Origin: a virus
Lineage: Duplodnaviria; Heunggongvirae; Uroviricota; Caudoviricetes
IMG/VR virus record: IMGVR_UViG_3300036945_000956
Length of the DNA: 64,000 bases
Reading direction: 5' to 3' (one strand)
Part shown: in pieces, positions 3,001-59,401 of the stretch
Numbering within the stretch: position 1 is the first letter of the stretch
How the letters are laid out: every line of letters begins with the position of its first letter
Position numbers and translations under genes: made by a program
The notes under the pieces: generated by a model
Seen by the model: the letters and a program-made list of their open reading frames with translations, nothing else
The model's database searches: none
What the model was told of the DNA's origin: nothing

Positions 3001-4303
3001 TTGAACCAATAGTACCACTATCATAAGTGATTGCCATGATCTTTGCAGTACCAATGGAAGTCCCTGCTGCTGATCCAATTGAACCATCAGTCACATTAGT
3101 CTGAACTGTATCATAAAGTGCCACGTTTGCACCAAGATGAGTATCAAACCGACCCATGAATTCTTTGACAAGAATATAGTTACCATAATTCGTTGAAATA
3201 TTCTGAGAACTTTCAGTCAAATATGTAGATGATTTAGGAAGATCAAGACTAATTTTGTCAAGAAGTTCTACTCTCTTACCTTCAACATATGCTAAACCTT
3301 TATTCACATCAAGTGCAATAGCAGACGTATTTGCGCTATCAGATGTATTAATTACAAAATCATTAACAATATAATTACCTGATTCTTCTTTTGTGCGCTT
3401 TTCAATTACACTCATAATCGTGCTATATTGAGTGTCATTATTTCTACGAATAACACGACCATATGCATATTCTTGAATAGCAAAGAATGATGAATTTGCA
3501 ATTGCTTCATCAGTTGTTTTCGTCACAAGAATTGGAGTAAGTTTTAAACGATCAGCACCTGGCGCATTATAGTTATTAAAACCATTTGCATTATCAAGCA
3601 ATGATGTATCTGCATTGCTATTAATAATTGACTCATCAGTACTAAAACCAACCACAACATTATTTGGGCTGTTTGTATATTTTGAAACTACAGTAAGTTG
3701 TTCTTCAACACGTGAGAAGAAACCTTTTTGATAAATGATACCATCACCAGTTTTTATACCATATGCTTTACCAACTGCATTTGCTGGAACTGTAAGAATA
3801 CTTCCTGCTGCAGTAACAGTATCAATAATAGTATTGCTGGTATTCAGCAAATATAGGTTTTCAGTACTATTAAATGTTTTGATTTCAGTATTTGGGTTAC
3901 CAGAACCTGTATATTTAAAGAATAAAGTATTTAAATCCGGATCTTGAGATTCTAATCCATTAGCATATGTTTGAATAACACCTGAAACACCAGTAGTTGC
4001 ACCAATAATTTTAAGTCCATCATATGAACTCATTGAAACTGGTTGACCATTAGTATTCAGATCAAGAATTTTAATATATGCAAGATTATCAATTTCTGAA
4101 AAATTACAACCTTGAATAATTGTACCATCAACAAGAATATTATTACCAAAGCGTTCAATTTGATTCTGAAGAATCGTTTGAAGTTGAGTTAATTCTCTTG
4201 CTTGTAGTGCAACACCTGGCTTAAATAGCACACGATAAAAGCTATTAGCTTCATTAAAATCATCAAAATATGGCGCTTGATTAAAATCAGTAGTTAGACC
4301 CAT
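1..4303 (-). CDS. Large virion structural protein, 5' partial (continues past the window start); putative tail fiber or baseplate-associated protein
   Basis: ATG at 4303 with a GAGG SD 9 nt upstream. N-terminus MGLTTDFNQAPYFDDFNEANSFYRVLFKPGVALQARELTQLQTILQNQIERFG. No competing long ORFs on either strand across 1 to 4300. Composition is Asn, Thr, Ser and Gly rich, like tail fiber proteins. Confidence 0.55.
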   Translation of the reverse strand, partial: MGLTTDFNQAPYFDDFNEANSFYRVLFKPGVALQARELTQLQTILQNQIERFGNNILVDGTIIQGCNFSEIDNLAYIKILDLNTNGQPVSMSSYDGLKIIGATTGVSGVIQTYANGLESQDPDLNTLFFKYTGSGNPNTEIKTFNSTENLYLLNTSNTIIDTVTAAGSILTVPANAVGKAYGIKTGDGIIYQKGFFSRVEEQLTVVSKYTNSPNNVVVGFSTDESIINSNADTSLLDNANGFNNYNAPGADRLKLTPILVTKTTDEAIANSSFFAIQEYAYGRVIRRNNDTQYSTIMSVIEKRTKEESGNYIVNDFVINTSDSANTSAIALDVNKGLAYVEGKRVELLDKISLDLPKSSTYLTESSQNISTNYGNYILVKEFMGRFDTHLGANVALYDTVQTNVTDGSIGSAAGTSIGTAKIMAITYDSGTIGSNTAIYKAYISDITMASTKKWDDVKALVYATNVGTADLITTTIYDQSFKRRVFNVGRSAIKAIPAANTTTYFTLRTVNNSLTMSSGGVLSFTLTSGEWPYSVGALTTDQKKDLILVAGATSSPYVANRPIDLTSATATVTNTTNISITVGAPAGSISNCILYHNVKKDGINAPTQKILETVYVKIACNTATTNSTGPWSLGFPDVYSIDNVYVGDTTIGYQDANTAADKTSFFVLNSNQKDDYYGLATISKKSGLSLVANSNLVVKLTRFKKGITDNGFFSVLSYPIDDANTANTSAIQTYEIPTFTSSDGAIYDLRDVVDFRPYSVNTAANSVTSASASVNPSATISFNTGGLVPTPNKELVADYEYYLARKDLLMIDTTGNIVLKSGTPAETPIAPADPSVGMVLADISIPPFPSLTAKLANAVKRNQYGVSLSKRNNRRYTMRDVGQIDTRVNNLEYYTALSLLETTTKDLIITGADGLNRFKNGILVDNFSDLLGANIDDPEYNAGYNVSTQEISPIFRLYPLTIKPDLTATNANVSVGISTVTLRKNTDSVLINQPYATGSRRLADQFWSFKGNARIYPSFDGGWDTNITPEPSFDVDSTSIYRYSTTGNAIRTTGANKTGTNIEQTAFQSAYMRPQNVRIRATGLRPNARHYFAFDKKNVNAFCAPGKFLTGSTNLVDIYSTDPDGTTVTSDSGGNLTAVFTIPANTFLVGERLLEIGDVNDFTLTPDAYTSYSNIAYTGFNPPRPTPRRQNRDPLAQTFRIDRDAGKDSVLMLSKLELYFKQKPVDANIGVTIEIRETVNGYPSSNSIVKNGVVYLENSSISTTVKTIVTFAEPVELKTDTEYAFVALPDNDHPDYYIHLSKVGGYDPVAKINVTHDTFDGTLFTSTNGRAWTPYQDENAKFTLYTGQYDKSGYQHFTNTDHEFFTIVPTSNSFVGSELVAKVAANLTQTITTVKSNTEIAYSGTTLVGTIAAGDFIGYWANTTVIDTLKVLSA

Positions 4304-4316
4304 CTATTTTAGCCTC

Positions 4317-6650
4317 TTAAAATTCAATTATTATTTTTACTTTTTCAGTTTGTGAAGTACTACGAGCAATTGGAGTAAATGTTTCAACATATAATATTTC
4401 GCCAGAACCATCAACTACTGAATTCAAAGTATTAACTTTTCCGGTAAGTTTAGCTGTTGCACCATTTATTTGCCCTACAAATGTATTTATAACGCCTGAC
4501 GGATCATCAGAAAGATTAAATACACCTTGAACACCAGTTAAACCAATTACAGTACTTGTTGTATTACTACCATTCAGGCTGTGAATATATCCTAAACCAT
4601 TTGCTTGGAAAGTATTATCAACATTTGATACTGACGCAACAACTGTATTTCCAGATGTTTTAATAATATTGATAGTACTATTTCCAACTAAAAATGTGCC
4701 AAAATTAGGATTAATTGTTATTGTATTTGCACCACGATCAATAATAATACCATTTGCTGTCACTGTAGAATCATTGTATTGTGTAATTAATGCACCTTCA
4801 CTGAACGAAAATGCTGAAGTATTTGTTGTTAACTTTACAACGTCTGAACTAATTAACTGTAATCCTGTCTGAAGAACTAATTCATCAAGTTCAAAACCTT
4901 TATCAGCAGGACCTGTATTTGTGATCACAACATTGTAGATTTCACGTTGATCAAAAGTAGTCAATGATCTATCAATTGCTGAAACACTTGCGGTAGTATT
5001 ACTTGTACTTCCAGTAATGTAGTTTACAGTACTATTTCCTGTTCCAAAAAATCCATCTATGTTGGTAAGTCGTAATGTTGTACCGTCACGATTTGAAACT
5101 TGACCTGTTGCCCCAGTGTTAGCTTGAACAATATATTCGCCTGCCGTAAAGTTAGCTGCAACACTTGCCGATAATGTCAATTGAACATTTGCAAATAATG
5201 GATCTTTAATAATTGATATTTTTCTAAAATCATTTGTTGCTGGAATTGTACTTGATTCCGTATTTGCAAATGACATACCAATACCAATTCTATTTGCATA
5301 TAACTCATTAATTACATCAGAACCGTGACCACCTTGTGGAGAAATGATTGCTCTTGCCTTTGCAGTTGATGTATTAATAACACCATTTGAAGTACCAGTA
5401 GAAATGTTACCAGTGTTTGCAATAATTGTAATATTTGCAAATGTATAATTTGATCCTGAGTTAATAATTTCAATATCTGAAATTGAGTTAGCTGATGGAT
5501 TTACAATGGCAATTGCTTTTGCATTTGATCCATCACCATTAATGACTACACGTGGACCAATTTCAAATACAGAACTTACATCTGGAACTGTTTGTAATGG
5601 TGAATCTAATAGAACACGGCGAGTATCACCAGTAGAATAATATTCTGTGATATTTCTTAACTGACCTGCACCTAAACCTGAACGAATATAAAATGAGTTA
5701 TTTTTATAAAAGCCGGCATTTGGATTTAATGATGTCGTAAGCGGTGTTGCTGAAAGTATTGTTCTATTAGTAGTTGTTGTAACACCAATAATATTTGCGC
5801 CTGGATTAAATGATCTATCAACATTTGTAATTCTTAAAGTATTATTTGAGGTAAATACGGCAACAATAACACCATTTGATGTTTTATTAGTTGCGGTATT
5901 TAGTGATGTAACTTTTTCTTCAGTAAATCCTGCCACACTTGATAATGTCACATCATATTCAGAATAACGTTCTGATGAAATAGAATATAATAATGTATTA
6001 CCACCAACAGTGGCCTCCTTAATGGTGCCTGTTGCATAACTATTGTATTCTGAACCTGGGTTTGTAATAAGAATTGTATTAATTGAACCAACCACAGCAT
6101 TAGATGTCACATTGGCATTTGGAACAACTGGAATATATTCTGCTGTGGCAAATTTGGAGTATGTAGATGCATCCACAGAAAACATATATTTCCACTGATA
6201 CCCGTCATTTGTCACATAAGTTTCATCATCTGCCGATGTTTCTGAAAATAATGGTTGACTTATTGATTGAGACCTGTTATTATTATTCAGACACTTAAAT
6301 ATATGATAATTTGTACTTTCAGGTGATACGACAAAAAAGTTCTTTGTCTCTAAATTGGCCACTGTATCATCATACATATCATATATTGTACCAGAAGTCC
6401 AAGAAACATTTCGAATCATATGCTTAATATCAGCAGGTGTAATATTTTTACCAAAGATAAGATCATCGTATAGATTATAATGGTTTTCTATAATAGAATT
6501 CACAGGATCTGGTGGGGAACTATCATTTGTAAAAGGTGTGCTTTTATGGGCACCAATATAATAGATTGAATTAGCAGATTCATTCACAGACTCAAGAAAT
6601 TGAGCAGCGGCATGTGTACGAAAATTACTTACAATAAGACGAGACATCAA
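4317..6650 (-). CDS. Baseplate wedge or tail structural protein (777 aa; gp8/gp10-position)
   Basis: Long ORF, tightly packed between the gp7-like gene and the giant structural ORF. Composition is Thr, Asn, Ser and Gly rich, typical of fibrous virion proteins. Confidence 0.5.
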   Translation of the reverse strand: MMSRLIVSNFRTHAAAQFLESVNESANSIYYIGAHKSTPFTNDSSPPDPVNSIIENHYNLYDDLIFGKNITPADIKHMIRNVSWTSGTIYDMYDDTVANLETKNFFVVSPESTNYHIFKCLNNNNRSQSISQPLFSETSADDETYVTNDGYQWKYMFSVDASTYSKFATAEYIPVVPNANVTSNAVVGSINTILITNPGSEYNSYATGTIKEATVGGNTLLYSISSERYSEYDVTLSSVAGFTEEKVTSLNTATNKTSNGVIVAVFTSNNTLRITNVDRSFNPGANIIGVTTTTNRTILSATPLTTSLNPNAGFYKNNSFYIRSGLGAGQLRNITEYYSTGDTRRVLLDSPLQTVPDVSSVFEIGPRVVINGDGSNAKAIAIVNPSANSISDIEIINSGSNYTFANITIIANTGNISTGTSNGVINTSTAKARAIISPQGGHGSDVINELYANRIGIGMSFANTESSTIPATNDFRKISIIKDPLFANVQLTLSASVAANFTAGEYIVQANTGATGQVSNRDGTTLRLTNIDGFFGTGNSTVNYITGSTSNTTASVSAIDRSLTTFDQREIYNVVITNTGPADKGFELDELVLQTGLQLISSDVVKLTTNTSAFSFSEGALITQYNDSTVTANGIIIDRGANTITINPNFGTFLVGNSTINIIKTSGNTVVASVSNVDNTFQANGLGYIHSLNGSNTTSTVIGLTGVQGVFNLSDDPSGVINTFVGQINGATAKLTGKVNTLNSVVDGSGEILYVETFTPIARSTSQTEKVKIIIEF

Positions 6651-6657: not shown

Positions 6658-9600
6658 TTAGGCTGATGTTATACTACTATTGGCAATGGCAATACTTAAA
6701 TTAGCTGTTGATCTTTTTTCAACACTACCAAATATTTCATTACCAGCAACATGCAATATCTTTTTAACAATATCTTCATATCTATTTATAGACAATCCTG
6801 AAATGATGTCATACGAATATTCTTGATAGTATCTATTATCCTGAATCTTCTTTTCAGAGTTCAGATGTGATGTTGTTGTTTTCCAATAACCTTCACCAAT
6901 ACCTTGATTCAAAATGTTTGTAGTACCTTCAAGTAAAAACTGATTGTTAACACTTTCAAGAGTGACAACACCATCTTGTACATATCCAAAACCAGAATCA
7001 ATAACCTCAAGTGAAGTTGCAATACCATTTGCAACAATAACATTTGATGATATAATTGCATTATCACCAAGAACACTTGAAGTACTATCGGCCTGAACAT
7101 TTAAAATATTTGCACTAGCATTTGAATCAACACCAGTAATAGCAATTCCAGCCGAAAATGCAACATTAAATGATGTTCTGTGAACTTTAAGTATTTTTCC
7201 AATAGTGTCATATTGTAATACTTTTCCTTTAGCAGATGTACTCTGTTCAAGGTTTTCACCAACAATAAATGATCCAATCACATTGTTTAATTCAAGATAA
7301 AAATCACCTCTTGCATATGAAGCAATATATGGATTATATACTCTTGTAAATGGATTTGCGTTATAGTTAATACCTGGATTTATTTTTCCTAGTGAACCAA
7401 TAGAACCAATAGTAAAGTTTTCAGATGTAAGAAGACTAGTAATAGTATCTGTAATCTCACCTTGTGGATTCTTGATAAATCCATAACCATAATTCATCAC
7501 TGGTGATATGCTAGCAACTGTGCCAGACGTTGCAGGAAGCGTAAGACTAGGTGAAGTGTAGTAACCTTCGCCAGGATCTGTTACAGTCACTGTAGTGATC
7601 ACACCTGAACCATTTGTAGTGATATATGCATTTGCCTGTAACCATGGATTGCCACCGCCTTGACCACCGCCCGTAAATGTAATTAAACCACCATTTGCAT
7701 ATAAAGTGCCACCAGTATTTACAGTTACTGTTTGTACAAATCCAATACCAGATTCTTGACCATTCAATAATACATTCAGGAATGGAGTATTGGCTGTATT
7801 ATTTGCACCTACAAGATCAGTATTTAAAGCAACAGTTTCAGCATTTTCCAATACACCTACTTTAAAATTAGCACCAGTACCTGTTCTTATTCCTGTTATA
7901 ACTGTGTTTAGCTCAATGATAGTACCGTTTGCATATCGTGGAGGTGATATTAATAATTCACGATTTGTTTCAACATAAAAGTTACCTGCTTCATTATAGA
8001 AAAATGGTTGTGTATTTCCATAGATACCAATTGCTATTGTATTCTGCCCAACAATAAATCCATTTGCATATGCTTTTGTTATGTTATTCTTACCTGCAGG
8101 GGCTCCAATAACGCCATTTGCACTATTATTACTATTTAGATATACAGATGCTGCACCAGTATTTGTATTTGATGAAATTGTAGCAATAAGTTTGGTGCGA
8201 TCACCACGAATTTTATTGCCATCATTAAAGACACCATATACAATTCTTGCACTCACATTTGCTCCAGTAACATTAGTTACCAAACCTCTTGCTCCAGTAT
8301 TTGACACCGTAACGGAACTAACTGAACAGTTCACAGTTGGATTACTGGTTTTAATTAGTGATTGAGTTGTTACAAATGTTCCCCACGATTCTTTAACAAT
8401 AATTGTATTTGCAGTGCTTGATTCCACTAAACCAAATGCACTACTAGTAATTGTATTTGACACAGGTTCACGAATTGTTTGACTGACGGCATCATTAACA
8501 TTAAAACCAGTATTTGAAGATACTGATAATGTAACAATACTTTGCTCATCAATATATTCACCGATGGAATATGCTGTTGCTGAACTTAAAGTAAATTTAG
8601 TTTGATCACCAAATGTTGTATCACCGAGTAATTGAACAGTCACTAATGAATTGGCAGATGGTGTTGTGATAATATCACCAGTAGCATTTGTATTAGCAAC
8701 TGAAATAATAATTGAGTTTGCCACCACAGTATTTGCAGCATTTCTACCAGACAGATAGTCACCAACATTGGCGCTATTGACATTTGTTGCGGATGCAAGA
8801 TATATTTTTTCAATTCGTTGCAGAACTGGTTCATATAATGAATATGAAAGATTTGCGTTATTGACATTTAAAAGTGCTGTTGAAACATATACGTTTGTTG
8901 TATTGGTTGTTGTATATCCATAACCGCCATCGACAAGTTTAAAGTCAACACGACCAGTAGCATTCTCAATACCAGTCACACGAACCTTACCGTGTTTTGC
9001 TTCACTGCTTATAATATCAAGAATGTCACCAATTTTATTATCTTTGCCACCAGATATGATATTAATAGAAGTCAATGATCCATTGACTGATGGGGCTCCA
9101 TTGAGTGAAACACTATCAGTAATTTGTTCACCATAAATAAAATTTCCCTTAATTGAACTTAGATATACAATATCAATAAGTTTCCCATTAACACGTTTAG
9201 TAATAATACTTTCAACAAAAGCTTTAGTTCCAGTAATTGAACCAGTAATTTGTTTATTAATGAATGTTTTTGTTCTGGGACTTTTTGTAACTTCAATATA
9301 AATTTGATTGTACCATAAAGAATCCGACGGCTTGATAATATCATCACCTGGATAATACACATCAATTTCTTGATTATAAAGAAGTTTCATAAGCAACTCT
9401 AATGAGTACTTAGAACCTTTTGTTGAATATAGGTCAAGAATATGTTTGATTGCAAATCGCTTATCAGTTGTGATAATTGATGGAAAGTCAGCCAAGAATT
9501 CATTTTTGAAATGTGATATGAATGAATCCAAAGACTCATCAATATCACTTAATTCAAACATTTGACGTGATAATTTTATCGAATACTTGTCAGTTGTTTC

Positions 9601-9714
9601 AAGAAACTCATAATAGGCTTTTATGAATGCAACTAATTCAGCACCTTGCTCACGATAATAAGCAGGAAATTGTGACTCAATTACATGTGATATTGTTTGT
9701 GTAATATCAGTCAT
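6658..9714 (-). CDS. Baseplate wedge protein, gp7-like (1018 aa)
   Basis: Size and position immediately downstream of gp6-like, as in T4-like baseplate operons. It abuts the neighbouring genes with 2 bp and 7 bp gaps. Confidence 0.5.
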   Translation of the reverse strand: MTDITQTISHVIESQFPAYYREQGAELVAFIKAYYEFLETTDKYSIKLSRQMFELSDIDESLDSFISHFKNEFLADFPSIITTDKRFAIKHILDLYSTKGSKYSLELLMKLLYNQEIDVYYPGDDIIKPSDSLWYNQIYIEVTKSPRTKTFINKQITGSITGTKAFVESIITKRVNGKLIDIVYLSSIKGNFIYGEQITDSVSLNGAPSVNGSLTSINIISGGKDNKIGDILDIISSEAKHGKVRVTGIENATGRVDFKLVDGGYGYTTTNTTNVYVSTALLNVNNANLSYSLYEPVLQRIEKIYLASATNVNSANVGDYLSGRNAANTVVANSIIISVANTNATGDIITTPSANSLVTVQLLGDTTFGDQTKFTLSSATAYSIGEYIDEQSIVTLSVSSNTGFNVNDAVSQTIREPVSNTITSSAFGLVESSTANTIIVKESWGTFVTTQSLIKTSNPTVNCSVSSVTVSNTGARGLVTNVTGANVSARIVYGVFNDGNKIRGDRTKLIATISSNTNTGAASVYLNSNNSANGVIGAPAGKNNITKAYANGFIVGQNTIAIGIYGNTQPFFYNEAGNFYVETNRELLISPPRYANGTIIELNTVITGIRTGTGANFKVGVLENAETVALNTDLVGANNTANTPFLNVLLNGQESGIGFVQTVTVNTGGTLYANGGLITFTGGGQGGGNPWLQANAYITTNGSGVITTVTVTDPGEGYYTSPSLTLPATSGTVASISPVMNYGYGFIKNPQGEITDTITSLLTSENFTIGSIGSLGKINPGINYNANPFTRVYNPYIASYARGDFYLELNNVIGSFIVGENLEQSTSAKGKVLQYDTIGKILKVHRTSFNVAFSAGIAITGVDSNASANILNVQADSTSSVLGDNAIISSNVIVANGIATSLEVIDSGFGYVQDGVVTLESVNNQFLLEGTTNILNQGIGEGYWKTTTSHLNSEKKIQDNRYYQEYSYDIISGLSINRYEDIVKKILHVAGNEIFGSVEKRSTANLSIAIANSSITSA

Positions 9715-9715: not shown

Positions 9716-11509
9716 TTATCCTGCTACTCCATATACGGTGATAAGTACATCTTCTGGTCGAATAGTAATAATTCTATTGTTTGGCGGCACAATGTCACTT
9801 AACACTGTTCTTCCATATATTCTTAAATCAGCACCTTCATATGCAGAAATATTAAGTGCTTTAATAGTAACTTTACCAGTCATATAATCAACACTACCAA
9901 TATCATCATTTAAGTAAATAAAACCACCATTTGTTGTTTGAAGTATTTGTAATTTACCTAAACCATCATCTTGAATAAACGCAGAGTCTTTTCCAGCATA
10001 TGTAAATGTTGAAGATTTAATAGCTGGTTTATGTGTGTTAACCAATTCACCAGTAGTCAATGGATGATCAATGATCAGTTGATTTTTAAATTCTAATGAA
10101 TATGCATTATTTACATTTAATGTTGGATTGATCGCAAGAATGGCTTGAACTGATGTATCATTTGATAGTATGCTAACGTTACTATTATCAATTGTGGATG
10201 TAAAATTAGAATATCTAAATGTTTTCTTAAAATCGGATAGATTATTTGTACTGTATTTGGTGATTGAATTAGCAACAAGATCTTTAATTGCAACAGGAGA
10301 TAAATCTGTTACATTAATATTATAGTAAACATTACTTGTAACATATAGATACATAAATTCAGCAGCTTCAATGATTGGTTCAATACCCAGAGCTGTTCTA
10401 TCTTTTAAGTAGTTGTAATATTTGTTCTTATCATTACTTGATAGTCCATAAGCATTATTGGTATCAACTGCAACAATGACACGACCATATTGTGGCGGAT
10501 CACGTTCTTCACCACCGTAAGCCAATGCAGCTTGAATTTCTGGAAACTTATTTTTCAAAATAATTTCAAAATCAGACTTAGTAATTGCACGATCTTGAAT
10601 CTGAATGGATTTTGGTGCAAAGTATTTGATTGACTCAATACTTTCAATGTCTGAGCCACCTGCCGATGTTGAGTTTAATGATACGGTTGCTTGATAACCA
10701 GAAATAGAACCTGATGGTGCCATGCTAGTAATACCATTTGCAGCCGAACCAACGGTCATACGATATTCAATAAGTACAACATTACCAGTTGTCGGAACAT
10801 TTCCAAATACGTTTTGACCAAATCCAATCTCATACTTATCATCAAAATACGGTTGAACATAGAAAACATTGTCTAATGATCCAACACCAAAGATATTTGA
10901 TTTTGGCATATATGTGATACCGGTTGTATCGGTTGATGTAGCTTTAACAGTGACACGAATACTGTTTGTATCTACATTCTTATTTGAGATAACAAATCGT
11001 TGTGTGTTTATATTAGTGACAGAATATGCTTCAGTGATATAACTGCCTTCATAAACTTCAAGGTTGTTATACACAAATGAGTTATTGACATTTGGTATTG
11101 ACACAGCATCAGTACTATAGAATGTGTAAGTCTTGTTGCCACATCTTGCAATGAATTTTGTTTTTGCAGGAATTGTAATTGTTGCTGGATATGGTGCAGC
11201 CACAGACAGTCTTACAGCAATTTTTGCAACTGATGATGTGTATGATCTTGGAAGATAATTCAAGGACTTTGCATGTGAAATGACTGAATCTCTTAGTTGT
11301 GATGAGTCAAGAAACATTTCAGAAATTGCCATATTTGTATAGAAGTTATTCTGATATGTATTATAAGCCAATATGTCTAATAGGACAGACATATTTGAAC
11401 CTTCAAAATCATAGTCCTTAAACTGGTTTTGACCTTTAAGGTAAGCTTTAAGATCAGCTTTTACCTGATCAAAGTCTAAATTAGTGATACTGTTAACTGT
11501 AGTTGCCAT
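9716..11509 (-). CDS. 6: Baseplate wedge protein gp6
   Basis: N-terminal FKDYDFEGSNMSVLLDILAYNT matches the T4 gp6 motif FLDYDFEGSRLNVLCDLLAYNT. It sits downstream of gp25. Confidence 0.75.
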   Translation of the reverse strand: MATTVNSITNLDFDQVKADLKAYLKGQNQFKDYDFEGSNMSVLLDILAYNTYQNNFYTNMAISEMFLDSSQLRDSVISHAKSLNYLPRSYTSSVAKIAVRLSVAAPYPATITIPAKTKFIARCGNKTYTFYSTDAVSIPNVNNSFVYNNLEVYEGSYITEAYSVTNINTQRFVISNKNVDTNSIRVTVKATSTDTTGITYMPKSNIFGVGSLDNVFYVQPYFDDKYEIGFGQNVFGNVPTTGNVVLIEYRMTVGSAANGITSMAPSGSISGYQATVSLNSTSAGGSDIESIESIKYFAPKSIQIQDRAITKSDFEIILKNKFPEIQAALAYGGEERDPPQYGRVIVAVDTNNAYGLSSNDKNKYYNYLKDRTALGIEPIIEAAEFMYLYVTSNVYYNINVTDLSPVAIKDLVANSITKYSTNNLSDFKKTFRYSNFTSTIDNSNVSILSNDTSVQAILAINPTLNVNNAYSLEFKNQLIIDHPLTTGELVNTHKPAIKSSTFTYAGKDSAFIQDDGLGKLQILQTTNGGFIYLNDDIGSVDYMTGKVTIKALNISAYEGADLRIYGRTVLSDIVPPNNRIITIRPEDVLITVYGVAG

Positions 11510-11925
11510 TATCTTACCCTGTTAAGTACTACGTTTAATGTTATTGGTGTTTGTATATTTATGACGCTAAACATGATGGTAATTGTAGCGCTATTTTGAT
11601 CATTAAAAAGATCACTCACATTTACAGAAATTAAATTGCATCTTGGTTCAAAGTTTTCTATAGTTGTTCTAATAAGATCTTTTAGAATGTATTGTGTTTC
11701 GGGATGAAGAATATTCTCAAACAACATTTTTCTGATATTAGAACCAAGTGTTGGATTAAATAGTCGTTCACCAGTATCGGTCAAAAGTAAATTTTTGATT
11801 GACTCTTTGATAGAATCCTCATCGGTATATCTAACAACATCACTATTTACTGGATTCAATAAAAGATCTTTTCTCAAATCAGAATATAATACATCCTGTT
11901 TTCTTACACTAGGTGTTATGATCAT
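11509..11925 (-). CDS. 25: Baseplate wedge protein gp25 (lysozyme-fold)
   Basis: 138 aa. The pattern YSDL..D...N, R.F.P..G, NFEPR and FSVI matches T4 gp25. Confidence 0.7.
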   Translation of the reverse strand: MIITPSVRKQDVLYSDLRKDLLLNPVNSDVVRYTDEDSIKESIKNLLLTDTGERLFNPTLGSNIRKMLFENILHPETQYILKDLIRTTIENFEPRCNLISVNVSDLFNDQNSATITIMFSVINIQTPITLNVVLNRVR

Positions 11926-11949: not shown

Positions 11950-13521
11950 TCAGGTTCTAAGAGCAGCACGAACATCAGCATTCAATTGATCAATTTCTGC
12001 TGAAGAACCATTTCTAAATTGATCATTAAAATGCAATTTTAAAGCATTTGTGTGTGCTAATGGTCCAGATGTTTCAGTCCATTGTGATCTGTAATCTCGA
12101 ACATCAATATGAATAAAATTATTGTTACCACCAGAGTATGTGCCAATACCCATAGCACCTTCTTCACTAGCTGCTTTAATAAACTTCTCACCTGATTCAA
12201 AGTCTGTACCAAAACTACTTCTTGCCACATCAAGGGCCATACCTGACATATGATAACTATTTTTTGCGCCACCAATACTTCTATTATATGCAGGTGATCT
12301 ATATCCGGAATTAATGCTTAATTTCTTACCTAATTTTTCTGATATTCTCATACCAAGAATAAGAATATCAACAGTTAACTTTTTTACACCTATAGCATCT
12401 GTTGGATTATTCATTGAACCACCAATTGTGCTAAAGTCAAACCATTTTGTACCAGGATGATTACCTGTCAATATATCAGCAGCAGCTGCAGATATAATTG
12501 CTATTGCTGTAGCCTTTTCAGTTTCTGTAAAAGGTCTTGTATACCACTTTCCAGGTTTAGCTTGCCCTGCTTGATCAAGACCAGAATCAGCTCCATTGTT
12601 AAGGTTATCTGAAAGTTGTTTCTTTACAGCTTCAACATTATCATCACTCATTCTAAATGCACCAGCAGTAACAGCAGATAGACTGAATTCAGTTGAAGCA
12701 TTTGTTAATACATTTTTAACATCAGTGCAACTTTGTAAAGCATTTTGTAGTTCTGATAATGGACTACGCATAAATTGTTCAACAGCATTTGATAACTGAC
12801 AGAATCTATAAACAAGATACTCAATATTCTGTTGTGTGATATTAGTAAACTTATTTGAGGTTGATGCAATTACACCATTCACAGTATCTTTTAATGTCTG
12901 AATATTTAAATCACTAAAGAAGTCAGAAGTCTGTTGAACTGTATTTGCAATACCTTTAATAGATCCTAAACAGTTGCTAACTTGCTGTATTAATTGTGTG
13001 ACAAGTTGTGATAACTTTTCTTTTAATGTATCAATCAATGTTTCAATTAATTTTTGTATATTAAGTATTGCACCTATAACATTGTTAACAGTATTTAATG
13101 CATTAAAAACATCATTTAAGACACCAGAGAATATAGTACAAAAACCATCAGTACTTGATGAAAAGTTATTGGTGTAATATGTATTCAGATTTTCAAGATA
13201 TTGTAATGCAGTAATTGATAGTTGATTAGGATTTAATGCTTGAACCATACTTTGAGTTGTGCCAGTTGCAATTAAAAAGTCAGCATATTCAGTGGTACTA
13301 ATTGGACCACTATTTAATCTATCATATAACATTGGATAATCATATTCTTGTCTTGCCAATGTAACCAATAAATTTAAATCTGTTAGTGCTATAAGTAGAA
13401 ATGATTGATCATATTGTTTTGCAGAATCGTTTTGAAGATCAAATAGATCACCAACGGAAAGAATTTTATACTCTAACTCTGCTGTAGTTGAATTAAGATT
13501 AAAATATGGGCTACAAGACAT
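11950..13521 (-). CDS. Baseplate or tail protein with a C-terminal peptidase M15 (LAS-type zinc D-Ala-D-Ala carboxypeptidase-like) domain
   Basis: C-terminal SGYRSPAYNRSIGGAKNSYHMSGMALDV...FIHIDVR gives the SxHxxGxAxD plus HxD zinc-peptidase signature. The N-terminal two thirds are coiled-coil and Q/N/L rich. Confidence 0.55.
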   Translation of the reverse strand: MSCSPYFNLNSTTAELEYKILSVGDLFDLQNDSAKQYDQSFLLIALTDLNLLVTLARQEYDYPMLYDRLNSGPISTTEYADFLIATGTTQSMVQALNPNQLSITALQYLENLNTYYTNNFSSSTDGFCTIFSGVLNDVFNALNTVNNVIGAILNIQKLIETLIDTLKEKLSQLVTQLIQQVSNCLGSIKGIANTVQQTSDFFSDLNIQTLKDTVNGVIASTSNKFTNITQQNIEYLVYRFCQLSNAVEQFMRSPLSELQNALQSCTDVKNVLTNASTEFSLSAVTAGAFRMSDDNVEAVKKQLSDNLNNGADSGLDQAGQAKPGKWYTRPFTETEKATAIAIISAAAADILTGNHPGTKWFDFSTIGGSMNNPTDAIGVKKLTVDILILGMRISEKLGKKLSINSGYRSPAYNRSIGGAKNSYHMSGMALDVARSSFGTDFESGEKFIKAASEEGAMGIGTYSGGNNNFIHIDVRDYRSQWTETSGPLAHTNALKLHFNDQFRNGSSAEIDQLNADVRAALRT

Positions 13522-13530: not shown

Positions 13531-15234
13531 TTATACCGTATCATCAATTTGATTAATACTAATACCGCCGGTTGTCGGTGATGATTGTTTTTTAGTTGCA
13601 ATACCGGCAGTTGGTGGTTTTTCAATATTTGCTGCACCTTGAGTATCTGCTACGGTTGCAACAGAACCGTCATTAAGATGAACTTCAGTGCCTTTAATAG
13701 TGGCATTACCACCAGTTGCTTCAATTCCCACTGTTGCCGCATTTACATTGAAATTAGCACCTTTAACTGTAGTATCACCCACTGATTGTAATTGGATCCC
13801 TTCAGAAGATAGAACACCAACACCGCCTGCGGTTGCTGACAAGCCTACACGTGCAGACTTTATGTCTAATGATGTACCAGAGTTCAGTACAATATCACCA
13901 GCGGCTGCTATGTTAATGTTAGAGTTTGATGATATGCTTAAATCACCGACTGAGTGTAACTGAATACCACCATTTTCTACACGAATCGAATAACCACCAT
14001 CAGAAATATTTGTGGTATGACCACCGACCTGTTGTTCAAAGTCATTTATTGAAACTACATGTAAACGACCAATTGCCCCAATTGTTACATTACCATTTTG
14101 ATCTAATGCAATGTGAGCACCGCTCTTATGAATAATATTAATATGTTCATTGTTTTCACCATCACCACCATGCATTTCAATATACGAACCATTATAACTT
14201 GCATTAATTACTGTTGTATTATGTGATCCTCCAACAGCAAGACCTGGATGATAAAGATCACCAGTTGATTTTTGAAAGTTTGCAAGTGCTGGAGCTAGTG
14301 GTGTGTGATGAATGCCTTCACCAGTTCTCTGAGGCGGTAATGCACCCTGACCATATGATTCAATTGTTGATGATACTAATGGTGTATACGGTGCGGTTGA
14401 CGGAAGTGTTGATGTCACAATCCCTGGATCAGTGCCGGTAATTCTAAAATAGTCTTCCAACCAATTTTTTTGATATGTTGCCGAAGTTTGCCCACGATTT
14501 ACACTAAGTTGTTCGGCAGACATATTGCCTTGAGCATTTCCTGTAAACCAAACGTTTGGTATTGCAGCAACATTGTTATTATTCTTTGCAAGAATATCAT
14601 TTACATAGTGTCCGGCTACTGCATCTTGTATGGCTGGAGGTGCATCAGCTGCATGACTATATTCAGTACCAATACCTGCAGCTGTCGCACGTTCTTGCCA
14701 TGTCGAGTCAATAAATTGATAAGCACCTGAAGCTGTAGATCCTATAGCATTACCGTTTGCATCTCTCTCGACATATCTTGTTCCACCATTTTCAGCTGTG
14801 TAATCACCGCCTGATTCTCGAGCTTTAATTGTTCTAAGAACACCTTCTGCAGTACCTGAAACATATGCTGGTGTTGCATTATTCTGGGATTGATCATTAG
14901 CACTCATATCACCAACAGAGCCAGTAGGTTCTAATGTAGGAATCCCAAACTTTGGTGTTGGTATTACCCCAAAGATAAGTGGTTGTTGAGCATCACGTCC
15001 ATCAAGAAAAGCACCAAATACCAATTCACCAATGGCAAGTTTTGCAGAAACACTTACGTTATTAACAAGAACTGTTGCCCATGGTAAATCATCTGCACTA
15101 ACAGTGCCTTCTGCAATAGTAGGATGGAACCCAAAAGCTCTTACTTTTACACGGCCTTCGTGTTTAGGATCATTAATGCGCTGCACAATTCCCATAAACC
15201 AAGTAAGGTTATTTAAGCCCTCATATAATATCAT
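13531..15234 (-). CDS. 5: Baseplate hub and cell-puncturing protein gp5-like, with a central lytic-transglycosylase-like (GH23/SLT-type) domain and a C-terminal beta-helix
   Basis: N-terminal GIVQRINDPKHEGRVKVRAFGFHP resembles the T4 gp5 OB domain. The middle has RESGGDY...GSTASGAYQF.DSTWQ, which fits the E-S...GAxGxxQ SLT motif. The C-terminus is a GxxVxxG repeat beta-helix. Confidence 0.65.
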   Translation of the reverse strand: MILYEGLNNLTWFMGIVQRINDPKHEGRVKVRAFGFHPTIAEGTVSADDLPWATVLVNNVSVSAKLAIGELVFGAFLDGRDAQQPLIFGVIPTPKFGIPTLEPTGSVGDMSANDQSQNNATPAYVSGTAEGVLRTIKARESGGDYTAENGGTRYVERDANGNAIGSTASGAYQFIDSTWQERATAAGIGTEYSHAADAPPAIQDAVAGHYVNDILAKNNNNVAAIPNVWFTGNAQGNMSAEQLSVNRGQTSATYQKNWLEDYFRITGTDPGIVTSTLPSTAPYTPLVSSTIESYGQGALPPQRTGEGIHHTPLAPALANFQKSTGDLYHPGLAVGGSHNTTVINASYNGSYIEMHGGDGENNEHINIIHKSGAHIALDQNGNVTIGAIGRLHVVSINDFEQQVGGHTTNISDGGYSIRVENGGIQLHSVGDLSISSNSNINIAAAGDIVLNSGTSLDIKSARVGLSATAGGVGVLSSEGIQLQSVGDTTVKGANFNVNAATVGIEATGGNATIKGTEVHLNDGSVATVADTQGAANIEKPPTAGIATKKQSSPTTGGISINQIDDTV

Positions 15235-16568
15235 GCTGTTCCAATTCCATATCGTGATAATGTAAGTTTCTGTTTATATTCTTTATTTAGAAATTCATTT
15301 CGTATTTCATTCACCAAATAATAACCACTGCGTTCAACATCTATGTTTTTTGTATTACCTGAATTGGCTTTTGCTCTCAATGGTAACTGAAGATTGATTA
15401 CTGATCCAGCAACAATATCATTATGCCCATGAATTTCAACTTCAATGGTGTTTTGATCATATTGGTAAAAATATGAACCTTTCTTATTATATAGGTCAGA
15501 ATAATTAGCATCAAGTCTGACTGCAGGTCCTGAAACATCTGCAGGTGCTGTATAATCTTTTAAAACAAATCGAGTATACTTATCTGATATGACTTCATCA
15601 ATAAATTGTTTGCTGTGCGGTAACTTTATTTTATTATCTGAAAAGTCATCTAAAATACTATATGGTGTTTGAGGAATTAAAATAGTCCCATTTAAAATAT
15701 CAATTGCATATACGTTGCGTTTGTAAGCACCTTTGTTAATATCATTTATCGTATTTACTTTTTCACCAAAATTGATGTCACGAATATTAAACATCAGCGT
15801 ATATTGTGAATTAGCATCCATGTTTGGTAGATAGTTGTAATAGAAATTCTTTACTTCACCATCTTGCAATACACTTGGTGGTCGCATTTCAGTTTCAGAA
15901 ACTTTTGTTCCATAGCGTTTAATAACATACTCATTTGTTCCAAAAAAGTAACTATCTCTGTTTTCAAAGAAGCGATAAGACTGTGTATTTGAATCTGATT
16001 TATAAGCATAACGAGCAAAAAACAAAAACGTTTCAACAGGAGTAAGATTTGGAATGACAAGATTCTGAATGCCATCAGTTTCTTCAACATCTAATTCCTT
16101 TGGTTTTAAACGCTGTTGATCCATTGCTGCTTTAAATGTAGCATCAAAATGTAGTTTTACATAATCACTTATTTTCTGATTCTTAAATGCTTTCATGACT
16201 CTAAAGCTATCAGTAAGAACTCTAGGTGTTGATACAAAGTTTAATGTGTACTGAATTAATGTTTGGTTATTAGGATCTGAATATTTAATATCAGATACTG
16301 AAAAGACCATAAACACATCAGTTCTTACTTTACCAAAAAAGTCTTTATATATGAACTCAATATATTCTTCACCTATGACTGGCAATCTTGATAAAATATC
16401 ATCACTGTCAAAGAGTGTAGTTGTACCAGTCATAAATGGTGCTGACATTGATTCTGTGATAGTAAAACCAGACATTAAAGCAGACACTTCTATCTTGCTC
16501 TGTCTTGTATAGTCACTGAGATAAACACTCACAAGTTCGTATTGTCCAGCTTGAGTCAGACTAGGCAT
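15231..16568 (-). CDS. 27: Baseplate hub protein gp27-like
   Basis: 445 aa immediately upstream of the gp5-like gene. N-terminal composition and overall pattern resemble T4 gp27. Translationally coupled to its neighbours. Confidence 0.5.
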   Translation of the reverse strand: MPSLTQAGQYELVSVYLSDYTRQSKIEVSALMSGFTITESMSAPFMTGTTTLFDSDDILSRLPVIGEEYIEFIYKDFFGKVRTDVFMVFSVSDIKYSDPNNQTLIQYTLNFVSTPRVLTDSFRVMKAFKNQKISDYVKLHFDATFKAAMDQQRLKPKELDVEETDGIQNLVIPNLTPVETFLFFARYAYKSDSNTQSYRFFENRDSYFFGTNEYVIKRYGTKVSETEMRPPSVLQDGEVKNFYYNYLPNMDANSQYTLMFNIRDINFGEKVNTINDINKGAYKRNVYAIDILNGTILIPQTPYSILDDFSDNKIKLPHSKQFIDEVISDKYTRFVLKDYTAPADVSGPAVRLDANYSDLYNKKGSYFYQYDQNTIEVEIHGHNDIVAGSVINLQLPLRAKANSGNTKNIDVERSGYYLVNEIRNEFLNKEYKQKLTLSRYGIGTA

Positions 16569-17139
16569 TCAACAATCCCTTTAATTCTGATTCGGCTTGC
16601 GACGCATATGCTCTATTAAATAAGAATATGTTTCTTTTATTCTCATTCAGTTCAAGTTCATAATCATAAATTCGTACTGGGTACCAATCACCTGCAGTGA
16701 TCAATCCTAAATCTGCATTTAACAGATAAGTATCCTTACTGATTCTATTGTTCTCGGCATTCTGATACCATAGAATATTGCTGGTAAGTGATGCATTCTG
16801 TGTCCAATTAATAACACCATTTCCAACATATGCTGGATTTACTGCTTGTGCTTGTTCAGTATATTTCTTTATAATCATTTTTTCAAAGTCACTATTTGAT
16901 AATGGCCATTGAGAAACAGGGTCAATGATATTATTGGCCATGAATACAAGCCAAGTTTTACCCATATCATCATAATAATATAGAGCAATGTCTTCTGGCT
17001 TCTCACCATCTTTAATTGAATATGAAAGGAATGAAATAGGTGAACTATATAATTGTTGCTGAATAGCAGTTCGGCGAGTAATATTTACTACCGATTTGCC
17101 GTTGTATGTTACTGTTGGGAAAAATTTAAAGTAGTTCAT
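16561..17139 (-). CDS. Baseplate structural protein (gp53/gp26-size)
   Basis: 192 aa, inside the baseplate operon with 4 bp overlaps on both sides. Confidence 0.4.
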   Translation of the reverse strand: MNYFKFFPTVTYNGKSVVNITRRTAIQQQLYSSPISFLSYSIKDGEKPEDIALYYYDDMGKTWLVFMANNIIDPVSQWPLSNSDFEKMIIKKYTEQAQAVNPAYVGNGVINWTQNASLTSNILWYQNAENNRISKDTYLLNADLGLITAGDWYPVRIYDYELELNENKRNIFLFNRAYASQAESELKGLLNA

Positions 17140-18146
17140 CTTGGCTGTCTCCCGCTATTAGTTCCTGGTGCACCGGTTAGTATGTCTTGTCTAAATTGAT
17201 TCGGATTCGAAATAGGTTCATCAAGAGGTATAATGGTATCAGCACCACCGCCGTAATCATCACTTGTATGAATTTGCACCTCAGTCATCTCTAATGATAA
17301 TTCCACAACAACAGGCTTACCACCTTTAAAAACGTTTAATTGTTCACCTCCATTATATCGTACATCAAACCCAGTGATCATACATGGTTTTAATTTATAA
17401 TAATAATCCTGATTAATACCAAGAAATGTAACCATAACAAGTTTTGGGTATTTAAGAAGTGCATGTGTTAAAGCAGCAGGACCTGCGGCACCAACATATG
17501 CCGGTAACATATTTTTCTTAATTTCCTTAATAACATCTCTTAAAGCATCTGAATCTTTTTGACTTGACGGTGATAATCTCCAGTTAAAAGAATGGGATTT
17601 AAGTTTTACGCCTTTGAATTCCATTGTTTCAAATGAGTTAATAGCCTTACCCAAGAGAAGAGAACCTGTAGTTCCTGCTACTTGATTAGATACAACTGCA
17701 GTTCCACCTAAAAATGTTGTAAGGGCTGCAGCTATTGGACCTTTAAGTTGAGAAGTCGCGGCAGCTGCGGATCCTGCCACATTTTTCATTAAATCAGCAT
17801 AAAATCTAGCATTTGATTCAAAATCTTCACCGCCTTGATATGAACCAAAATCAGCTGCTGTACTTGTAATTGCTGCTATATTACCAGATACTGAACTTGC
17901 TTCAATACCTACAGAATCTCTTAATTGTAATGGTAATGGAAGAACAATAGAACCTTTTGAAATTTCATTTGCAAAATTTTCAGTGCCAAGTCCAATGTTT
18001 TCACTATATATATATTCCTTGAAATTCATAAGCATAACATATGGAATAGCTTCTGATGCTGGGAATCTAAGATTATCAATTGCAGTAGTACTATTTCTTC
18101 GCGCTGCAGCTATTACATAGTTTGGATTTTCTACAAAATTGGGCAT
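17136..18146 (-). CDS. Baseplate tail-tube cap or initiator protein (gp48/gp54-like)
   Basis: First gene of the minus-strand baseplate operon, 38 nt after a TATAAATA late promoter. The C-terminal segment has tube-fold-like beta-strand character. Confidence 0.4.
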   Translation of the reverse strand: MPNFVENPNYVIAAARRNSTTAIDNLRFPASEAIPYVMLMNFKEYIYSENIGLGTENFANEISKGSIVLPLPLQLRDSVGIEASSVSGNIAAITSTAADFGSYQGGEDFESNARFYADLMKNVAGSAAAATSQLKGPIAAALTTFLGGTAVVSNQVAGTTGSLLLGKAINSFETMEFKGVKLKSHSFNWRLSPSSQKDSDALRDVIKEIKKNMLPAYVGAAGPAALTHALLKYPKLVMVTFLGINQDYYYKLKPCMITGFDVRYNGGEQLNVFKGGKPVVVELSLEMTEVQIHTSDDYGGGADTIIPLDEPISNPNQFRQDILTGAPGTNSGRQPR

Positions 18147-18156: not shown

Positions 18157-18191
18157 TATAAATACATATAAGCTTTAACATATTTATATGG
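18157..18191. promoter_or_regulatory. Divergent pair of T4-type late promoters (TATAAATA on each strand)
   Basis: Plus-strand TATAAATA at 18157 to 18164 sits 34 nt upstream of the ATG at 18198. Minus-strand TATAAATA (tatttata at 18184 to 18191) sits about 38 nt upstream of the ATG at 18146. Confidence 0.7.
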
Positions 18192-20807: not shown

Positions 20808-22202
20808 ATGGTAGAAGTAACCAGCAAACCAACTGATATATCTAAGATTCAAGATATTATGAATGCAATTAGTTCAAATGGTGGTTCAGATAAAACTGGG
20901 CTTATGGTAGATTATGCTGCTGGTTCAAAACTTGAAAGTGGTATCAATGAACTTAAAATGATTGGCAAAGAACAAGCTGTTTATCTTAAAAAAATGGTTG
21001 GTTATCAAGAAGCAATGCTTGGAAAGGCCAGAAGAGAAGATGTATCTAGTGCTGCAACGCCATCAAAAAAAGGTAAAAAAGATAATGATGAAGAAGAAAG
21101 TAAATCTGCTAGTTTAGGTTCGGTATTAGCAGCTGCTGGATCAGCAGGACTTATGTCATTACTTGGACCTTTAGGATTACAAGCTGCAGCAGGAATGTTA
21201 CTTAGAGGTGGAGGTGGCGCTGACAAATTAAAGGGAGCACCTGGAAATGACCGACTGAATGTTAATGACACAAAACCAAAAACATCGACAAAATACTTAA
21301 CTGTAGATGAGCGTCTTGCAGCAATTGCCGAAGATAAGCGTCTTGCCACACTTGCTGAGCAAGCATCATCCAAACCAAAAACATCAACAAAATACTTAAC
21401 TGTAGATGAGCGTCTTGCAGCATTTGCTAAAGATAAACTTCTTGCATCAATTGATGATCTGAATACAGTGCCAAAACCAAAACTATCTACAAAATACTTA
21501 ACTGTAGATGAGCATCTTGCAGCGCTCGGTGATAAAAAACCAACACTCAAACCAATGCCACCAATGAATGCTGGGTTAGAACCATTCAAATTAACACAAG
21601 ATATGCGTGTTACCACTGAAGCCGCACCTAAAATATATCCTAAAATATCAGATGCACCAACAAAAGGTATAGTTAAGCCACCAAAAATGTCCAAAGTACC
21701 TGGCGCACTTGGAGCATTATTATCAGGTGGTATGGGTTATTTTGATCAAGAATTAAAAGATGCCGGACTTGATGCCACACAAAGAATTCGTCAAGGTCTT
21801 CTTGAATCTATTCCTGGCGCAATTGATATGTTTGTTCAAGGTTTAATCACAGATCCACTTAATAGCATAACAGGAAGAGGATTTGCCGCTGAGGAAGATA
21901 AGTTTAATCTTGATATTACACCGGCATTTCGTAAATATATGTTGGCATCAATTGATGAAACGCCTAATAAAACAATAGCTGCAGCTCCAAATAGAATGAC
22001 AGCATTTAAAACGGCTATGGCACCAACAACAGTACCTGATAAAACCCTTGCACAACCACAAGCAGCACCTATTATTATTGCACCGCCTGCAGCACCAGCA
22101 TCATCTGTAGTGAACTCTAATAACCAACAGACCACCATTGTAAATCAAACAAAAAATGTGTCTGCATCGTTATACACACAGATGCTTGGTGGTAATCGGT
22201 AA
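20808..22202 (+). CDS. Repeat-containing virion protein, putative tape-measure or baseplate-hub (gp29-like), with a hydrophobic segment and 3 tandem repeats
   Basis: 464 aa. The hydrophobic stretch is SASLGSVLAAAGSAGLMSLLGPLGLQAAAGMLL. The repeat KPKTSTKYLTVDERLAAIAEDKRLA occurs three times (DNA repeats at about 21283, 21373 and 21478). A terminator follows at 22203. Confidence 0.45.
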   Translation: MVEVTSKPTDISKIQDIMNAISSNGGSDKTGLMVDYAAGSKLESGINELKMIGKEQAVYLKKMVGYQEAMLGKARREDVSSAATPSKKGKKDNDEEESKSASLGSVLAAAGSAGLMSLLGPLGLQAAAGMLLRGGGGADKLKGAPGNDRLNVNDTKPKTSTKYLTVDERLAAIAEDKRLATLAEQASSKPKTSTKYLTVDERLAAFAKDKLLASIDDLNTVPKPKLSTKYLTVDEHLAALGDKKPTLKPMPPMNAGLEPFKLTQDMRVTTEAAPKIYPKISDAPTKGIVKPPKMSKVPGALGALLSGGMGYFDQELKDAGLDATQRIRQGLLESIPGAIDMFVQGLITDPLNSITGRGFAAEEDKFNLDITPAFRKYMLASIDETPNKTIAAAPNRMTAFKTAMAPTTVPDKTLAQPQAAPIIIAPPAAPASSVVNSNNQQTTIVNQTKNVSASLYTQMLGGNR

Positions 22203-24655: not shown

Positions 24656-24689
24656 AGTATTTCCTTTAATTATATAAACATGTTTAAGT

Positions 24690-24996: not shown

Positions 24997-25027
24997 CACC
25001 TTAATTAGTATATGTCAACCATTGTTT

Positions 25028-57457: not shown

Positions 57458-57500
57458 TCGCCTTACAAGAGCGAACCTCTACCATTAAGGATACAAGGGC
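57426..57500 (-). tRNA. tRNA (anticodon loop CUUGUAA, probably Thr-UGU), CCA encoded
   Basis: T-arm GTGGG-TTCGATT-CCTAC. Acceptor 7 bp with one mismatch. Confidence 0.55.
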
Positions 57501-57504
57501 ATAT

Positions 57505-57579
57505 TGGAGCGGGCAATGGGGATCGAACCCACGACAATCAGTTTGGAAAACTGGAGCTCTACCACTGAGCTATACCCGC
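57505..57579 (-). tRNA. tRNA-Gly (UCC)
   Basis: GCGGGTATAGCTCAGTGGTAGAGC...TTTCCAA loop...GGGTTCGATCCCC...TGCCCGCTCCA. Confidence 0.7.
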
Positions 57580-59345: not shown

Positions 59346-59401
59346 CTCCTGTTGATATAATACTTATATATCACATAGAAAGTAATGTCAACAACTATTT
59401 T

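Follow-up and report, generated by a model that had tools for sequence, protein, structure and literature searches.

Does the baseplate of a T4-type phage carry, alongside the wall-cutting enzyme of its central spike, a second enzyme directed against the peptide part of the cell wall? The question is raised by two neighbouring genes on the minus strand of a 64,000-nucleotide stretch of viral DNA (the window), for which a sequence-only reading had claimed two different virion-borne wall enzymes in one baseplate. Tail-associated wall-degrading enzymes are well known, and the basic finding is in this sense an ordinary one. The DNA comes from an uncultured myovirus of the T4 superfamily, most closely related among cultured phages to the Sinorhizobium phages phiM12, phiN3, phiM7 and phiM19, and an alphaproteobacterial tmRNA carried by the phage suggests that its host belongs to the Alphaproteobacteria; at the DNA level, a search with a 3.3-kb region against 50,697 phage records returned no match.

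The two open reading frames lie exactly where they had been placed, at 13531..15234 (567 aa) and 11950..13521 (523 aa), within a T4-type baseplate module transcribed from the minus strand. They are preceded by genes for a gp48-like tube cap (17136..18146), a gp53-like protein (16561..17139) and, directly upstream of gp5, a gp27-like hub of 445 aa (15231..16568; PHROG 350 ‘tail protein’, E=2e-57), and are followed by a gp25-like baseplate wedge gene (11509..11925; PF04965, 53.1 bits against a cut-off of 27.2), which directly adjoins the gene of the 523-aa protein, and by gp6-like (9716..11509), gp7-like (6658..9714) and gp8-like (4317..6650) genes. The opposite strand carries gp4, gp2, a tube-protein paralogue, gp26 and a 464-aa ORF (20808..22202) that contains internal 99-nt repeats and Gly/Ala-rich hydrophobic stretches. 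The start of gp5 overlaps the stop of the gp27-like gene, and the gene of the 523-aa protein, referred to below as the M15 protein, lies 9 nt behind the gp5 stop and 24 nt ahead of gp25. The T4-type late-promoter motif TATAAATA, identified by a scan for exact copies, is enriched in the window (20 copies against 6.0 expected, a number reached in 0/100 shuffles) and forms a divergent pair between gp4 and gp48. Its copy at 18181..18188 on the minus strand, upstream of gp48, is likely to mark the start of a predicted gp48-gp53-gp27-gp5-M15-gp25-gp6-gp7 transcription unit; past this position, no further exact copy is encountered on the same strand before 6783-6790, just upstream of gp8, so that the M15 gene is without one. 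Scans for sigma-70 promoters and terminators gave chance-level results only. The spacing of the late promoters and the tight gene junctions are most simply explained by co-transcription of the M15 gene with those of the hub and the wedge.

The 567-aa protein displays the layout of a central spike, in which an OB domain is followed by an inserted domain of ~170 aa and then by a predicted beta-helix, and its gene adjoins that of the gp27-like hub inside the baseplate module. The T4 counterpart of the OB domain docks on the gp27 hub. Here, the N-terminal OB domain (aa 1-103; 14926..15234, minus strand) is recognized by phmmer over aa 8-74, with matches to the OB domains of the central spike 9f4a (E=5.7e-7) and of T4 gp5 (1pdl; E=7.6e-6), and the protein matches the PHROG ‘baseplate hub and tail lysozyme’ families (430/694; E=3e-19). 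The linker and putative C-terminal beta-helix needle (aa 277-567 and the stop codon; 13531..14406, minus strand) include DUF2345/VgrG-type repeats in the C-terminal third, which score 26.4 bits, under the cut-off of 30.7, and align by BLASTP to the beta-helix of phiM12 gp5 (E=7e-16), a region that itself weakly matches Gp5_trimer_C; a second stretch of the spike matches Gp5 in PDB entry 9vzk. With 239 homologues collected, sequence comparison supports the assignment of this protein as a gp5-type central spike, as had been proposed.

The inserted domain occupies the position at which T4 gp5 carries a GH24 lysozyme, and was expected from the sequence-only reading to be of the GH23/SLT type. It corresponds to an exchangeable cassette of the lysozyme superfamily (aa 104-276; 14407..14925, minus strand), SLT-like and a putative lytic transglycosylase, of which aa ~119-275 constitute a discrete module that recurs in many other proteins at ~50% identity. 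Searched alone against Pfam, the domain yields no phage-lysozyme (GH24) match even at E<=10; its only match is to PF06737 (Rpf-type ‘Transglycosylas’), at 17.7 bits under a gathering score of 27, and this copy, which has no PF01464 match, lies under the gathering score of every Pfam family. Among the 29 module copies that form alignment A1, employed both as a profile and for an AlphaFold model, 26/29 match PF06737 and 18/29 match PF01464 at E<=0.01 (best PF01464 value, 8.7e-6). The A1 profile detects the lytic transglycosylase gp144 of phage phiKZ at E=5e-7, and a direct count in the alignment pairs Glu140-Ser141, at the end of the first core helix, with E115-S116 of gp144, whose Glu115 is the proposed catalytic residue. 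The codon of Glu140, the predicted catalytic acid, lies at 14815..14817 on the minus strand; the residue belongs to the ‘RES’ motif within RESGGDY (aa 139-145), and GSTASGAYQFIDSTWQ is found at aa 165-180. Over 219 module copies, position 140 is occupied by E in 218 and position 141 by S in 216, and Y145, G170, Y172, W179, Q203, D204, W229 and G232 are invariant. The E-S...GAxGxxQ signature that had been read in this block is borne out as far as E140-S141; the literal GAxGxxQ is absent, and the spike reads A-S-G-A-Y-Q-F at the counterpart of the SLT ‘G-L-M-Q’ motif. SLT motif III (AYNxG) is replaced in the module by W-[FY]-T-G-N, and in the window's copy, 14 extra residues separate the Glu helix from ASGAYQF, in a region where model confidence is low.

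The AlphaFold model built from A1 has a pLDDT of 79, and a Foldseek search with it against the PDB returned nothing significant; six of its seven best structural matches are lytic transglycosylases, the best being Slt70-type enzymes, and the sole significant sequence-profile match of the module is a lytic transglycosylase as well. The transglycosylases detected by structure or profile are Slt70, Cj0843c, Pseudomonas Slt, gp144 and MltC. In addition, the module is related to a lambda-lysozyme-like cassette family (hhalign 96.4%, E=1.4e-9), which in turn matches lambda lysozyme (1AM7) at E=4.9e-5. The likeness to E. coli Slt70 and family-1 enzymes (GH23, PF01464) is one of fold, with no PF01464 match in the window's copy and a different motif III. 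Because this copy falls under the Pfam cut-offs and is related both to gp144 (GH23-type) and to the lambda type (GH104), ‘GH23’ can be employed as a fold-level description only: the fold, the catalytic Glu and the lack of a GH24 match speak for the original proposal, but membership in GH23 does not follow. What is supported is a spike insert with an SLT/GH23-like lysozyme-superfamily fold and an aligned catalytic Glu, and no T4 GH24 lysozyme.

Since the nearest solved enzymes (gp144 and, via the related cassette, lambda lysozyme) and the best fold matches are all lytic transglycosylases, that mechanism represents the best guess for the module, whose predicted activity is probably of this type. 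The invariance of Asp204 in the module copies leaves room for a hydrolytic mechanism, in which case the spike would carry a true lysozyme, or muramidase; we regard this as rather unlikely in view of the structural and profile matches, which favour transglycosylases, and of the fact that the enzyme recognized by the related cassette type, lambda lysozyme, is itself a transglycosylase.

Comparison of the gp5 orthologues of close relatives reveals a sharp contrast between this module and its flanks: identities reach 89-97% in the OB domain and 86-90% in the C-terminal part, but only 24-27% in the central region. At the DNA level, the window is ~87% identical to two related loci, L004 and L005, through gp27 into the start of gp5, with the upstream similarity ending at window position 14926 for L004 and at 14908 for L005. 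No DNA similarity is detectable across 14408..14925 (against L004) or 14415..14907 (against L005), and ~87% identity resumes at 14407 (L004) or 14414 (L005) and continues to 11901, where the comparison ends shortly beyond the M15 stop. Alternative inserts at the same site include SLT_3/SLT domains above the Pfam cut-offs (P0004, P0006), Phage_lysozyme2 domains at >100 bits (P0020, P0031), members of the lambda-lysozyme-like family (P0003, P0024, P0029) and a further type (P0005, P0007), beside the window's own, such that at least five different lysozyme-superfamily modules are found at one gp5 site among phages ~87% identical in DNA. The presence of unrelated modules in such close relatives, bounded by sharp breakpoints, is new here. 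The enzyme module of the spike is, as judged from these alignments, an exchangeable cassette that appears to be swapped among close relatives by recombination in the conserved flanks. The window's type also occurs in more distant gp5 orthologues, of 47-49% overall identity. The GC and GC3 of the cassette are equal to those of its flanks; exchange thus appears to run within a compositionally similar pool of phages, and recent import from a compositionally distant source left no sign in either measure.

The module family is widespread beyond the spike. In a set of 1.84 billion representatives, it was detected in 4,556 clusters at E<=1e-3, in 1,171 at E<=1e-10 and in 248 at E<=1e-30, and a tblastn search with the module alone against the 50,697 cultured-phage records yielded one weak match, to a Streptomyces phage hydrolase (E=2e-4). 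On two further T4-like contigs, the module found in the window forms part of a protein of ~727 aa encoded just downstream of gp26; these carriers are at or beside the gp29 (tape-measure) position, an observation that is also new here. Muralytic motifs in tape measures are classical, the tape measure of mycobacteriophage TM4 carrying an Rpf-like motif (PMC1796659), and the likeness extends to the family concerned: an Rpf/PF06737-like motif in a tail-lumen protein of TM4, and a module nearest to PF06737 within Pfam in the window.

The 523-aa protein consists of helical N-terminal two thirds and a C-terminal peptidase. Its M15/LAS zinc-peptidase domain (aa ~330-500; 12022..12534, minus strand), which includes SGYRSPAYNRSIGGAKNSYHMSGMALDV...HIDVR at aa 405-475, matches PF08291 (Peptidase_M15_3) over aa 392-473 at 59.5 bits against a gathering score of 23.2, as well as PF05951 (39 bits against 27); in the Pfam check that had been suggested for both enzyme segments, it is thus this one that lies above its cut-off. 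PHROG 25247 ‘peptidase’ matches over the full length of the protein (E=1e-33), for which 54 homologues were collected. A profile of 32 M15 sequences finds the zinc DD-peptidase of Streptomyces albus (1LBU) at E=1.4e-5, and H424, D431 and H471 align by direct count (H-x6-D and a distal His) to H154, D161 and H197 of 1LBU, the zinc ligands of that enzyme. The corresponding codons lie on the minus strand at 12250-12252, 12229-12231 and 12109-12111; H424, D431 and H471 are kept in all 54 homologues, in which R408, N413, S422 and Y462 are also invariant and D473 is present in 98%. The predicted model, with a pLDDT above 90 in the M15 domain, shows the LAS fold. The match to the MepK L,D-endopeptidase equivalog (NF053624) reaches 42.8 bits, far under the 185-bit cut-off. 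The proposal for the neighbour of the spike is therefore supported: its C-terminal part is an M15/LAS zinc peptidase, and no metal ligand is missing. Given this score well above the curated cut-off and the broad conservation of the spike module, the motifs read in the two proteins exceed what chance would produce. N-terminal to it, aa 1-320 (12562..13521, minus strand) are predicted to fold into a compact helical domain and then to continue as long helices (aa 127-309, AF2); many residues of this part are invariant among the homologues, and a search for a specific structural relative found none. It is possibly a virion-anchoring or tube-lumen region. No further member of the transglycosylase, lambda-like or M15 families is encoded in the window.

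Is the M15 protein, like the spike, on the particle? We infer its incorporation into the hub or the tube lumen from co-transcription with the hub genes and from the large, conserved helical N-terminal part. The idea of two virion-borne wall enzymes in one baseplate is borne out at the level of gene position only, within a baseplate operon, and the 523-aa protein is a putative component of the particle. The M15 gene lies between gp5 and gp25 in phiM12, L004 and L005 alike, and at least 10 further putative gp5/M15 pairs, matched by the length of their contigs, were found among homologues of both proteins. In two further proteins, the activities are joined in one chain: P0064 (973 aa; available without genomic context) has the transglycosylase module fused with an M15_3 domain, 39% identical to that of the window, and in P0119 the transglycosylase module occurs together with an M15 domain of the VanY type and a match to a PHROG tape-measure family (E=3e-21). 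Related papers contain no statement on the M15 protein in virions.

One could suppose instead that the M15 protein serves host lysis, as the endolysin or an accessory to it, and that its gene happens to lie within the baseplate operon; only the gp5 enzyme would then ride on the particle. In cultured phages, which include Pectobacterium phage PP1, Lelliottia phage phD2B, Vibrio phages and gokushoviruses, the closest relatives of its C-terminal domain are small M15 proteins annotated as endolysin or peptidase; most PF08291 relatives there are listed as endolysins, and PHROG 894 ‘endolysin’ matches the M15 protein at E=1e-21. However, an N-terminal extension of 390 aa, rich in invariant residues, is not what one expects of an endolysin, the gp5-M15-gp25 order is constant in every relative examined, the gene is devoid of an exact late promoter of its own, and the same M15 type is fused to the transglycosylase module in P0064. 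Furthermore, another gene of the window (25426..25893) specifies a SleB-type hydrolase of 155 aa, which begins with a hydrophobic leader and could be the endolysin of the phage. An endolysin role for the M15 protein is thus considered unlikely.

Casting the 523-aa protein as the gp29 equivalent, a tail tape measure with a terminal peptidase, fares less well. Tape-measure families of PHROG match aa ~100-317 (E=6e-8 to 2e-4), long helices are predicted within this stretch, and muralytic motifs have precedents in tape measures, as mentioned above; but the PHROG matches are weak and could stem from a coiled-coil composition, the match to a tape measure in the PDB has an E of only 0.33, and the gp26-adjacent position that a tape measure would be expected to occupy is filled in the window by the 464-aa ORF and in phiM12 by a separate tape-measure-like protein. 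We thus judge this proposal improbable, and retain location in the hub or lumen as the preferred reading. The 464-aa ORF has no detectable similarity to the phiM12 protein or to the module-bearing proteins found at that position. Finally, that the transglycosylase domain, the M15 domain or both are catalytically dead, with structural or peptidoglycan-binding roles only, is highly improbable: despite the insertion and low model confidence in the window's transglycosylase copy, the catalytic Glu, His and Asp on which the sequence-only reading had staked its case are all present and conserved, and all predicted catalytic and metal-binding residues are essentially invariant over hundreds of copies.

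The association of a gp5 and an M15 gene is not new, since phiM12 has already been annotated likewise. The records of the Sinorhizobium phages list gp5 as ‘baseplate hub subunit and tail lysozyme; COG4678’ and the next gene as ‘peptidase, contains pfam08291’; we found no study of the pairing in the literature, only this public annotation. In phiM12 (genus Emdodecavirus), gp5 is AB690_gp111 and the ‘peptidase’ AB690_gp110, the gene at the gp27 position is annotated with an HHpred match to gp27, and the order gp48-gp53-gp27-gp5-M15-gp25-gp6-gp7 is common to phiM12 and the window. The phiM12 M15 protein is a full-length homologue of that of the window (26.7% identity over 82%, E=4e-29), and the gp5 OB domains are 44% identical. 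The enzymatic parts of the two spikes differ: phiM12 gp5 consists of the OB domain, the beta-helix and then a C-terminal lambda-lysozyme-like domain, whereas in the window a module of another type precedes the beta-helix. In this arrangement of OB domain, enzyme insert and C-terminal needle, encoded beside gp27, the window follows T4 gp5 (1K28, 1PDL), but its insert is not of the GH24 type. phiKZ gp144 (3BKH), in turn, acts as an endolysin and has a peptidoglycan-binding domain at its N-terminus, whereas the window's module is a spike insert, and the sequence match between the two is confined to ~52 residues in the region of the catalytic helix. For the baseplate of Anabaena phage A-1(L), both glycosidase-type and peptidase activities have been demonstrated experimentally (PMC10966104), and all domains reside there in one gp27-like hub protein; in the window, the glycan- and peptide-cutting domains are distributed over two proteins, the spike and its neighbour. 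According to a 2017 review, hardly any endopeptidase virion lysins were known at the time from phages of Gram-negative hosts, and only PRD1 and phi11 were known to have two different virion lysins (PMC5380687).

Set beside the observed domain identities, conserved catalytic residues, synteny and cassette breakpoints, the course of entry that we infer, including the enzymatic activities, the bonds cleaved and the virion location of the M15 protein, would run as follows. The OB domain would seat the spike on the gp27-like hub, and the C-terminal beta-helix would act as the membrane-piercing needle. Once the needle is past the outer membrane, the spike module would most likely cut the MurNAc-GlcNAc glycan strand, with Glu140 as the single catalytic acid, and the M15 domain, through H424, D431 and H471, would most likely cleave peptide stems or cross-links. 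Held in the hub or tube lumen and freed on contraction, the M15 protein would allow the phage to attack both kinds of wall bond. We assign a probability of roughly 0.62 to this reading as a whole, in which an exchangeable SLT-like glycan cutter on the spike and a hub- or lumen-borne M15 peptide cutter are both used at entry.

The locus provides an example of a T4-type spike with a transglycosylase-like module inserted exactly where the classical lysozyme would stand; the family of this module is abundant in metagenomes and lacks a close counterpart among the 50,697 cultured-phage records. The clean and recent exchange of cassettes among near-identical phages constitutes a natural experiment on whether wall chemistry constrains host range, and a conserved, unstudied M15 protein marks the hub operon of the phiM12-like clade; as phiM12 is a cultured phage, the M15 question is directly testable. 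A broader reading can be put forward only tentatively: the gp5 insert would be a hot-swappable locus, the module would move between the spike and the tape-measure position in different T4-like lineages, and the 523-aa protein would represent an uncharacterised class of hub or tube-lumen endopeptidases. If this were true, wall-cutting chemistry would be a rapidly exchanged determinant of host range or counter-defence, comparable to receptor-binding tips, and the endopeptidase class to which the 523-aa protein belongs would be ejected by T4-superfamily phages of alphaproteobacteria.

The M15 protein, the 523-aa product of 11950..13521 (minus strand) that ends in a zinc peptidase, carries three conserved cysteines, encoded on that strand: C3 (13513..13515), C128 (13138..13140) and C241 (12799..12801). 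C128 and C241 are invariant in an alignment of 32 sequences, in which C3 is kept in at least 90%, and across all 54 homologues the former two are conserved at 93-94%. These conserved cysteines fall within the helical N-terminal part of the protein, where they may serve in disulfide formation or metal binding; the periplasm is the expected site of action of the M15 protein.

The window's third predicted peptidoglycan-degrading gene encodes a 155-aa SleB-type cell-wall hydrolase (25426..25893, minus strand) that matches PF07486 with 84.3 bits (cut-off 27), shares 48.5% identity with the 'cell wall hydrolase homolog' of T5, and bears the hydrophobic leader MRYILGIIILTSILTSTKVEA at its N-terminus, being a candidate for the role of endolysin.

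The phage encodes a tmRNA, permuted (two-piece) and of alphaproteobacterial type, which Rfam and ARAGORN placed at 24687..25036 (minus strand); it scores 86.7 bits against RF01849 alpha_tmRNA (gathering threshold 50) and 99.6 bits against RF04321 tmRNA_permuted, with ANENFAPEVRLAA as the tag peptide predicted by ARAGORN. The type of this tmRNA suggests an alphaproteobacterial host, in agreement with the kinship of the phage to Sinorhizobium phage phiM12. Twelve tRNA genes are clustered at 57426..62375 (minus strand), with specificities for Thr, Gly (two), Ser (two), Leu (two), Val, Asp, Ala, Asn, and Met. The minus strand also harbors auxiliary genes for PhoH (32878..33633), an RtcB-type tRNA-splicing ligase (34996..36369), a group-1 glycosyltransferase (39717..40655) and an SPFH/Band-7 protein (46227..47171). 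At the left end, leaving aside any ORF that might run off it, none of at least 100 aa is listed within 1..4316; downstream of gp8 there may be a very long gene on the minus strand that extends out of the window. Across the whole window there are 20 copies of TATAAATA, the late-promoter motif of T4, versus 6.0 expected, and they include a divergent pair in the gp4/gp48 intergenic region (18157..18164, plus strand; 18181..18188, minus strand).

The tape-measure position adjacent to gp26 is occupied by a 464-aa ORF (20808..22202, plus strand) that has no match among PHROG families and no similarity to the tape-measure-like protein of phiM12. It contains Gly/Ala-rich hydrophobic stretches, as well as a 99-nt tandem repeat of 2.5 copies (21271..21523) whose translated units are of the KPKTSTKYLTVDERLAA type. 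Two other T4-like contigs from metagenomes, of 110 kb and 342 kb, each encode a protein of approximately 727 aa (L007, 10001..12184; L006, 10001..12181) that closely follows gp26 on its downstream side, occupying the gp29 position or one beside it; the L006 protein adjoins gp26 directly, while a 186-aa ORF intervenes in L007. Both carry, in their C-terminal part, the SLT-like transglycosylase module that the window's phage bears in its gp5-type spike. Across lineages, then, the module moves from spike to this site at or beside gp29, or the other way.
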